The translations under genes and the position numbers were made by a program. Below, one piece after another: positions 30,329 through 32,910 of a stretch of DNA of 64,000 nt. Under the pieces are notes generated by a model, which was not told where the DNA came from, did no database searches, and worked only from the letters and a program-made list of their open reading frames with translations. The first letter of the stretch is position 1, and each line of letters starts with the position of its first letter. The stretch lies in the IMG/VR virus record IMGVR_UViG_2913147268_000005; one strand, written 5' to 3'. This stretch comes from a virus (lineage: Duplodnaviria; Heunggongvirae; Uroviricota; Caudoviricetes).

Positions 30329-32910
30329 TTTCCGCCTCCTGCATCCCGCCCACGTTTTGCAGCCAGGGTCCAGGCTGATGAATGAGCTTCTCCGGGTTTA
30401 TCTTCGGTCATACTGTTGCAGTGCCACAGCGAGCCCCCCCACGTCACCGTATCGCCGGGGTGGTAGGTTTCACCGGCTCTGAACACACCGCGGTAGAGCA
30501 TCACCGGCAGGGAAAATGTTTTTTCCGTACGCTGGCCACTGCTCTGCCGGACCACCACAGAGAACAACCGCTCACCCGTCATGCTGACGTCAATATCCGC
30601 CACCCCGTCAACCAGGCATTCCCATCCCCGCATCCCGTGCGTTTTTTCATACGCCCGCCAGAGTCCGCCCTGGTGTGTGGCATACGTGCCCCGGGGAAAG
30701 GATTTTTGATCGTCAATGGCGGGGAGTATTTCCAGAGCCGTGGCATCACGCCCGTCCTGCGGAGCCGGCAGGGCACTCACCGCATCCAGAACCGCCTTCT
30801 GCAGAACATCCGGATCGTAGTCACGACCATCACGCGGAACATGAATATGGCTTACCGCCTCCTTCACCATCTGTTCAAGCATCGGACGCACATCATCCGG
30901 GGTGAGACTTTTACCGTCTGCCGGCTGCGGAATATTTGCGACCGCATCATTCACCGCCTTCTGCAGAACATCGGGATCATAGTCACGACCGTCGCGCGGA
31001 ACAGGGATATGGCTTACAGCCTCCTTCACCATCTGTTCAAGCATCGGACGCACATCATCCGGGGTGAGACTTTTACCGTCTGCCGGCTGCGGAATATTTG
31101 CGACCGCATCATTCACCGCCTTCTGCAGTACTTCCGGATCGTAGTCACGACCATCACGCGGAACAGGGATATGGCTTACAGCCTCCTTCACCATCTGTTC
31201 AAGCATCGGACGCACATCATCCGGGGTGAGACTTTTACCGTCTGCCGGCTGCGGAATATTTGCGACCGCATCATTCACCGCCTGCTGCAGTACATCCGGA
31301 TCATAATCACGACCATCACGCGGTACCGGAATGGCCCCCACAGCGTCATCCACCATCGCCTGCAGAACCGGACGCACCTCATCCACCGTCACATGCTTCT
31401 GTAATACCGCCGACAGGGAAGTCAGTTTCTCTTCAAACGCTTGTGCCTGCGAGGCCATCTTCCCCTCAAATGTGCGCTGTAAATCCGCCAGCACTGTGGA
31501 GAATTCTTCTCCCAGTGCACGAATAATGGACAGTTCCCGTTCCGTCATTTTCTCAGTATCCCCCCTGAACATCGCTTTCACCGCATCATGCTCTGTTTCA
31601 CTGATTGCCTTATTACCGTCAGATGCGCCGTCAGGCAGCTGTGATGAAACTGTTTTCCCGGCAGACGCGAACGGATCCTCACGGGCATCACGACGGGACA
31701 GCGCCTCCAGACTGTAGTTCTGCTGCTGAAGATACAGTGCATCACCGCCGGCCAGGGGCGGCAGGTTCTCCCGTTTACGGGCCTCATTGGGCGTGAGAAG
31801 CGTATTTTTCACCGCATCCCCCAGCGTTTTCATGCGCCGCTCACTGTCCATTCTCAGCAGCGTGGTGACATCAAATTCTGTACTCTCGTTTTCCCCCGTT
31901 TCCAGCGCCTCATCCAGTAACAGTTCAATGGACTCAATCAGCGTCTGCAGGCACTGGGAATAATACTGCTGCTCCAGCGCCTCCACGTTGTCACTGGAAG
32001 GCGGTTGTCCCACGCCAATCTTGTAGGCCGGGACACGGAACACCGAACAGACAATTTCAGCGGTCATCTTCAGTTGTTCCACCGTCTGCGCATCCACAGG
32101 TGAAAACGTCGTGGGGTTGTATTTTGCCCCGTTGCTCAGAATGGCCGTTTTCCCCGCATTTTCGCCTGTATACCCGCTGTCCCAGTTGCTCTTCAGTTTT
32201 TTCGCATTTTCTTCCGTAATACTGCCGGGGATCTCAATCACCCCGGACGGCCTGCCGCCATTTCTGAAAAAAGACGTCGAATTTTCCTGAATATGATGCC
32301 CCTGCGTGGCCGCCAGCCCGGCGGCATACACCGGCGGCAATCCTATAAGCGGATGAAAAAAACAGTTAAACCGGTCGTGGATCACTTCCCGGGCAGGCAC
32401 CGTCACCGCCTCCGTGATCCCGCAGTTCCGGTCCGGCGTGATGCGGTAGAACACCTCGCCGTCATCCGCCACCAGAGGTTCAACCCGGCTCCAGTCCAGA
32501 ATACGCAGTTCTTTGATCTGCCCCCGGGCATTACGGATTTTCAGCACCACCGTATTGCCATGACGCAGTTTGGCGTTCAGCCACAGTTCAAAAAACTGGA
32601 TGCGGTTCTGCTGGGCGTTGGGACGACGACAGAGGCGGGCAATATCCCCCCGGCGCGTTTCCCTGCGTATCCCATGCGCATCCGTCTGCATAAGACGCAG
32701 CCGCATTTTGGCGATATCCTGGGATATCAGCGAAATACATGCAAACACCGCATGAAAGGAGAGGACGGCTTCAGGATCGGCTTTCACGCCCTGCTGCCAG
32801 GCGCCGGAAAAGGGCTCAGCCACCGCCTGAAACAGGCTGGTCCAGCCCGCCTCTCTTACGTCACGTCCTGATTTCTGGTTTTTTCGGGTTCGCCGTAAAA
32901 GGTTCCACAT
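30325..32910 (-). CDS. HK97-family portal protein with C-terminal 54-aa tandem-repeat extension
   Basis: N-terminal ~480 aa portal-like; then ~3.5 copies of DGRDYDPDVLQKAVNDAVANIPQPADGKSLTPDDVRPMLEQMVKEAVSHIPVPR. Confidence 0.7.
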   Translation of the reverse strand: MWNLLRRTRKNQKSGRDVREAGWTSLFQAVAEPFSGAWQQGVKADPEAVLSFHAVFACISLISQDIAKMRLRLMQTDAHGIRRETRRGDIARLCRRPNAQQNRIQFFELWLNAKLRHGNTVVLKIRNARGQIKELRILDWSRVEPLVADDGEVFYRITPDRNCGITEAVTVPAREVIHDRFNCFFHPLIGLPPVYAAGLAATQGHHIQENSTSFFRNGGRPSGVIEIPGSITEENAKKLKSNWDSGYTGENAGKTAILSNGAKYNPTTFSPVDAQTVEQLKMTAEIVCSVFRVPAYKIGVGQPPSSDNVEALEQQYYSQCLQTLIESIELLLDEALETGENESTEFDVTTLLRMDSERRMKTLGDAVKNTLLTPNEARKRENLPPLAGGDALYLQQQNYSLEALSRRDAREDPFASAGKTVSSQLPDGASDGNKAISETEHDAVKAMFRGDTEKMTERELSIIRALGEEFSTVLADLQRTFEGKMASQAQAFEEKLTSLSAVLQKHVTVDEVRPVLQAMVDDAVGAIPVPRDGRDYDPDVLQQAVNDAVANIPQPADGKSLTPDDVRPMLEQMVKEAVSHIPVPRDGRDYDPEVLQKAVNDAVANIPQPADGKSLTPDDVRPMLEQMVKEAVSHIPVPRDGRDYDPDVLQKAVNDAVANIPQPADGKSLTPDDVRPMLEQMVKEAVSHIHVPRDGRDYDPDVLQKAVLDAVSALPAPQDGRDATALEILPAIDDQKSFPRGTYATHQGGLWRAYEKTHGMRGWECLVDGVADIDVSMTGERLFSVVVRQSSGQRTEKTFSLPVMLYRGVFRAGETYHPGDTVTWGGSLWHCNSMTEDKPGEAHSSAWTLAAKRGRDAGGGK
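30790..31340 (-). repeat. in-frame tandem repeat, ~162-bp unit x ~3.4, near-identical copies
   Basis: Units recur at ~30843, 31005, 31167 and partially ~31260-31330. Confidence 0.85.

Follow-up and report, generated by a model that had tools for sequence, protein, structure and literature searches.

The near-identical 162-bp tandem repeats at the end of the portal gene of a tailed phage (Caudoviricetes; IMG/VR record IMGVR_UViG_2913147268_000005, represented here by a stretch of 64,000 nucleotides, the window) are probably the variable stalk of ORF2, a separate gene which is fused to the portal gene in this allele. The ORF2 product would be a trimeric, glycan-binding fibre of the head or neck that is coupled to the portal, and the probability of this reading is put at about 0.6. 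Judged from sequence comparison, the last 407 aa of the fused protein, from M455 onwards, are the product of a distinct gene. ORF2 is a conserved, so far uncharacterised phage protein normally encoded between the portal and gp6-like connector genes. The features of the locus are listed below with their window coordinates.

30002..30328, minus strand: gp6-like head-tail connector gene, downstream, with a 4-nt overlap with the ORF2 stop (Pfam Phage_connect_1; position after ORF2 conserved)
30325..32910, minus strand: fused ORF of 861 aa, HK97-family portal plus fibre-like ORF2 (ORF list; Pfam, TIGR01537, phrog_2271)
30328..30738, minus strand: C-terminal all-beta domain, fusion aa 725-861, CBM5/12-like chitin-binding folds
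30739..31386, minus strand: repeat array of 8 x 27-aa half-units, each a helix of 13-17 residues plus a Pro/Gly/Asp loop (AF2 helix-loop periodicity, pLDDT 40-75)
30791..31323, minus strand: near-identical DNA tandem repeat, 162 bp x 3.3 (TRF, 95% identity)
31387..31548, minus strand: N-terminal long helix of ORF2, fusion aa 455-508, putative anchor/oligomerisation segment (AF2 helix 3-52, pLDDT 88-96)
31546..31548, minus strand: ATG of M455, conserved start of stand-alone ORF2, MTERELSII... (P0121, FSL SP-016, BP-4795)
31560..31565, minus strand: G6 run (C6 on the plus strand), Shine-Dalgarno (SD)-like element of ORF2 (alignment with phage 1717; G-run typing)
31591..32910, minus strand: portal proper, about aa 1-440 (Pfam match; alignment with G5 alleles)
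33122..35059, minus strand: prohead protease-major capsid protein (MCP) fusion of 645 aa, upstream (Pfam Peptidase_S78 and Phage_capsid)

The repeat array and its copy number

TRF detected a period of 162 bp in 3.3 copies with 95% matches and 0% indels at 30791-31323, so the near-perfect repeats reported by the initial annotation at 30790-31340 were placed essentially correctly; an alternative 324-bp reading of the array reaches 31384. The array lies inside a single unbroken minus-strand ORF, and since the repeat length is divisible by 3, units of 54 aa are encoded. Between the two most similar units there are 6 differences in 162 nt, and five of the codons affected are synonymous. Each 54-aa unit consists of two diverged half-units of 27 aa, A (VRPMLEQMVKEAVSHIPVPRDGRDYDP) and B (DVLQKAVNDAVANIPQPADGKSLTPDD). 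At the protein level the whole array comprises 8 half-units (4 x 54 aa) spanning aa 509-724. This is the pattern of the E. coli stalk, in which 27-aa units made of a helix and a PxPxDGxD loop are arranged in A/B pairs of 54 aa.

Copy-number variability had been foreseen from the near-identity of the units, and it was borne out by 58 distinct intact IMG/VR alleles, in which 1, 2, 3, 4, 5, 6, and 7 units were found in 2, 3, 13, 31, 6, 1, and 2 alleles, respectively. The steps are strictly multiples of 162 bp, also between alleles with near-identical flanks. Unequal recombination or slippage between the near-identical units would shift the length of the stalk within this range of 1 to 7 units. 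The gene is present in 1246 of 5426 complete E. coli genomes, and the identical 861-aa protein occurs in 2917 index blocks of public assemblies, 851 of which include contigs >1 Mb. Database entries for the gene are mostly labelled 'partial', and a first homologue search returned only near-identical E. coli fragments. A search of viral contigs for related loci likewise gave E. coli loci only. PF28083 is listed by precomputed Pfam for some of the partial proteins and not for the full-length protein.

A separate gene and its single-base fusion to the portal

The N-terminal part of the fused protein is an HK97-family portal. Pfam PF04860 (Phage_portal) matches aa 54-382 (E 6e-81; 272.6 bits, cut-off 39.1) and TIGR01537 (portal_HK97) matches aa 45-388 (E 2e-104; 349.4 bits, cut-off 112), while phrog_2271 matches the fused ORF over its full length. 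Window aa 1 to ~440 are thus a full-length, high-scoring member of the family that includes the portals of Pankowvirus 2851 and phage 1717, and the window gene shares 99.6% identity with the gene annotated as portal in phage 2851. HK97-family portals end at ~450 aa, however, and the window protein adds 407 aa of another gene's product, fused by one base. In G5 alleles, named for a G run upstream of M455 that is one base shorter than in the window, the portal ends at aa 454, and a 454-aa portal ORF is found in phage 1717, E. coli ABU 83972, and BP-4795. The repeats do follow the conserved portal domain in frame in the window allele, as was initially described. Their interpretation as an extra domain of the portal did not hold, since they belong to a gene that normally starts at M455 and is free-standing in the great majority of relatives. 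Of 53 species-level loci, 49 encode the repeats and the C-terminal domain in an ORF of their own, as do isolated phages.

The evidence for a separate gene comes from its relatives. A stand-alone Serratia homologue of 400 aa (P0121) aligns over residues 1-400 to ORF2 residues 1-404, beginning at the same Met. ORF2 matched 5609 cluster representatives, 630 of them at E<1e-30. With few exceptions these proteins stand alone, measure 240-500 aa, contain 0-18 copies of the repeat motif, and share the C-terminal domain. The comparison of loci covered 53 species-level genomes in which the upstream portal is complete. The frame of ORF2 differs from that of the portal in this set, with only 1 genome carrying a fusion, and the start codon of ORF2 and the stop codon of the portal overlap in 49 of the 53, in 25 as ATGA. 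The ATGA overlap is also found in Salmonella FSL SP-016 and BP-4795, which share with Rhizobium RHph_X2_26 the gene order protease-MCP, portal, ORF2, and gp6-like connector; the protease-MCP fusion upstream of the portal is conserved in related loci. Other genera carry an SD-like AGAGGA or AGGGGG 9-13 nt 5' of the ORF2 start. Because of the overlap with the portal stop and the SD-like purine or G run just upstream, ORF2 appears to be translationally coupled to the portal gene. This split layout prevails in Gamma-, Beta-, and Alphaproteobacteria as well as among isolated phages. Between G5 lineages dN/dS was 0.12-0.19 for ORF2, close to the 0.10-0.13 of the portal, and by this measure ORF2 is functional in split alleles and under purifying selection. 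Pfam, NCBIfam, and PHROGs give ORF2 no functional name except 'portal', which is inherited from the fusion, and no literature was found on the 162-bp repeat or on ORF2.

Pairwise alignment with phage 1717 contains a single gap, at which the window has G6 and phage 1717 has G5. The ancestral state of the run is G5; the one G added in the window brings the portal and ORF2 into a shared frame and yields the 861-aa fusion, and the fused allele keeps the internal ORF2 start with its ribosome-binding site. Salmonella has a colinear AGAGGA ... AAAATGA, and Phytobacter and Pantoea have G5. Typing of IMG/VR contigs gave 52 G5, 41 G6, and no G7. Exact G6 66-mers were present in 747 complete-genome records and exact G5 65-mers in 29 + 152. 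In the allele tree G5 lineages are basal and G6 occurs in at least 3 clades, with one G5 allele nested among near-identical G6 alleles. A phase-variable homopolymer would change length often and repeatedly and show several length states; the run has two states and few inferred switches, and prophage recombination could yield the same pattern. In-frame portal-ORF2 fusions arose independently in two more lineages, P0209 (1237 aa) and the acidobacterial L221.

Three other accounts of the split and fused states were weighed against a gene fused by one base. There is next to no chance that the repeat number or the extra G results from an assembly or homopolymer-calling error, even though short-read assemblies often break within this gene, the database entries are mostly partial, and the phage record phi330 has many apparent frameshifts. 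An assembly expansion had been named in the initial annotation as what would overturn the repeats; the identical product in 2917 index blocks, 851 with contigs >1 Mb, speaks against it, as do the 747 complete-genome records with the exact G6 66-mer, the same allele in phage 2851, and copy-number classes in strict multiples of 162 bp. Given also the number of complete E. coli genomes that carry the gene, an artefact was rejected. It is highly improbable that the phage is meant to make the 861-aa fusion and that the split G5 alleles are pseudogenes decaying after a frameshift. PGAP does flag G5 alleles as 'frameshifted', GenBank lists 'portal protein (pseudogene)' for some Stx phages, and G6 is commoner than G5 in complete E. 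coli genomes. [quoted passage not shown] Sakai Sp6 (ECs1544) is not G5, however, but G6 with a different, late frameshift (833 aa), so G5 is unsupported as the cause of that call. Moreover, the split layout with the same Met, ATGA overlap, and SD-like element is the rule in three proteobacterial classes and in isolated phages, in G5 lineages purifying selection acts on ORF2, and these lineages are basal in the tree.

Alternatively, ribosomes could shift frame, or transcription slip, at the G run or at A-AAA-UGA, and either allele would then produce the short portal and the fusion at a fixed ratio. Programmed recoding that yields two products is known from lambda G/GT and T7 10A/10B. Here an SD-like AGGGGG lies 10-11 nt upstream of A AAA UGA, similar to the stimulator types of dnaX and prfB, with a rare AUA or AGG codon at the run, and both reading states are tolerated in nature. 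Recoding is nevertheless very unlikely, as the putative slippery A-AAA is not conserved. Junctions differ by genus (ACCAAATGA, AACCCATGA), with ACC-AAA-TGA, AAC-CCA-TGA, or overlaps of -1, -8, and -14 elsewhere, and most genera have AGAGGA in place of the G run, as a plain ribosome-binding site would. With both AGGGGG and A-AAA-UGA unconserved in other genera, a programmed frameshift was rejected as the main explanation.

Architecture of ORF2 and its predicted role

In the AF2 model of ORF2 a long helix at the N-terminus is followed by helix-loop repeats and by a confidently predicted C-terminal beta domain of about 135 aa. The N-terminal helix is amphipathic and conserved across representatives of the ORF2 family. 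The repeat unit, which the initial annotation had singled out for structure prediction, was modelled with helix-loop periodicity, the stalk as a whole reaching only low confidence (pLDDT 40-75). The best PDB sequence matches to the stalk are designed helical-repeat proteins, and a profile search of the PDB gave no natural homologue of ORF2; the stalk could instead be a monomeric alpha-solenoid. The small beta fold at the C-terminus is superposable on solved chitin-binding domains. CBM_5_12 scores 19.1 bits in the window protein, below the Pfam threshold of 26.2, and reaches 29.8 and 28.6 bits in the homologues P0124 and P0220, with others at 22-25. BFVD matches to ORF2 are phage proteins with collagen repeats and CBM5/12. 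In P0220 and P0237 collagen Gly-X-Y repeats replace the helix-loop stalk (Pfam Collagen, E 3e-21), and these collagen stalks are an indirect pointer to trimers. The AF2 profile and the family architecture together show the plan of a fibre, with an anchor, a long repetitive stalk, and a distal binding domain. ORF2 would accordingly be a trimeric accessory fibre of the virion, seated on the head or neck, with a predicted glycan-binding tip whose reach would be set by the length of the stalk. No experiment or solved structure, including proteomics and cryo-EM, was found that places any member of the ORF2 family in the virion. The decoration module suggested by the initial annotation comes close to this accessory fibre; its other suggestion, a module in the capsid interior, may still apply to the fused form.

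The phi29 head fibre gp8.5 and T4 fibritin (Wac) are trimeric, non-essential accessory fibres. Like ORF2, they have an N-terminal anchor, a helical stalk with regular turns or loops, and a small C-terminal domain, and T4 wac, as ORF2, adjoins neck or adaptor genes. ORF2 gave no sequence or fold match to gp8.5 or fibritin, however; its tip is CBM5/12-like with no foldon, and unlike them it can be fused to the portal. The minor head family of SPP1 gp7 and Mu gpF, for which portal fusions are known, is likewise encoded immediately 3' of the portal, which makes a portal association of ORF2 plausible. ORF2 differs from this family in its wholly other architecture. SPP1 gp12 and proteins of E. coli O157 prophages are collagen-like decoration and fibre proteins of phages, and P0220 and P0237 carry such a collagen stalk between the same helix and C-terminal domain, whereas the window ORF2 has 27-aa helix-loop units and no Gly-X-Y. 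The collagen-like proteins of E. coli O157 described in one study are encoded by genes of the tail-fibre region that are distinct from ORF2 (PMC3368898). In lactococcal siphophages carbohydrate-binding modules on the neck and other parts away from the tail tip have been proposed or shown to add binding to the host surface, according to a report on these phages (PMC6669499). Compared with the neck passage structure described there, which involves other proteins, Gram-positive hosts, and other gene positions, binding by ORF2 is predicted.

The fused allele poses a difficulty for an external fibre. HK97-fold portals direct their C-terminal end, the crown, towards the capsid interior; a portal-fused fibre would therefore lie inside the head, a poor fit with a position outside. 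The fused form is common regardless, and occurs in phage 2851, which, like BP-4795, we take to be infectious. ORF2 might instead sit on the portal crown inside the capsid and aid DNA organisation or ejection, the fusion making a non-covalent contact covalent. By position, models for such an internal protein are SPP1 gp7 and Mu gpF, encoded right after the portal, the P22 portal barrel, and the T7 core. This placement would suit a gene that directly follows the portal, translationally coupled, in almost every genome. It would likewise suit in-frame fusions with at least 3 origins (E. coli G6, P0209, L221), often seen in E. coli, to a portal whose C-termini face the capsid interior; twelve subunits would also give four trimers in a symmetric arrangement. 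An internal location is still considered unlikely. The window protein and 10 homologues had no Pfam match to Phage_Mu_F at E<0.01, nor was any internal family matched, and the anchor helix, the variable or collagen stalk, the tandem CBM5/12 tip, and the structural neighbours resemble external receptor-binding fibres. Fast change in stalk copy number is typical of surface appendages, and a folded trimeric tip (3 x 135 aa) would be unlikely to pass the portal channel. A quite unlikely variant would make the G5/G6 run a heritable switch between a free fibre and all twelve portals with a tethered 407-aa module at the crown. The tethered form would be interior, like the P22 barrel or a cargo, with its length tuned by the repeats, and would alter packaging or ejection, infectious phages existing in both states. 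Were such a switch real, there would be two virion designs, one with a portal and a free fibre and one with a portal-tethered fibre.

Annotation and significance

Roughly one in two E. coli copies of this very widespread prophage gene pair is annotated as 'frameshifted' or as a pseudogene, although comparative evidence points to an ancestral layout under selection, and the PGAP label 'frameshifted' on the ancestral split form is probably wrong. Stand-alone homologues are mislabelled as well, as 'portal protein' in a Rhizobium phage, BP-4795 (ORF59), and phrog_1289, and as 'gp6-like connector' in Hafnia. Such labels enter judgements of prophage intactness in Shiga-toxin-producing E. coli (STEC). 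ORF2 represents a large family that is fixed between portal and adaptor genes of a single head module across Proteobacteria and has neither a Pfam or NCBIfam model nor a solved relative. A portal with a 407-aa C-terminal fusion appears to be tolerated by infectious phages, which bears on portal assembly. If ORF2 is located on the head or neck, it would give long-tailed Stx phages and related prophages a new accessory device for adhesion.

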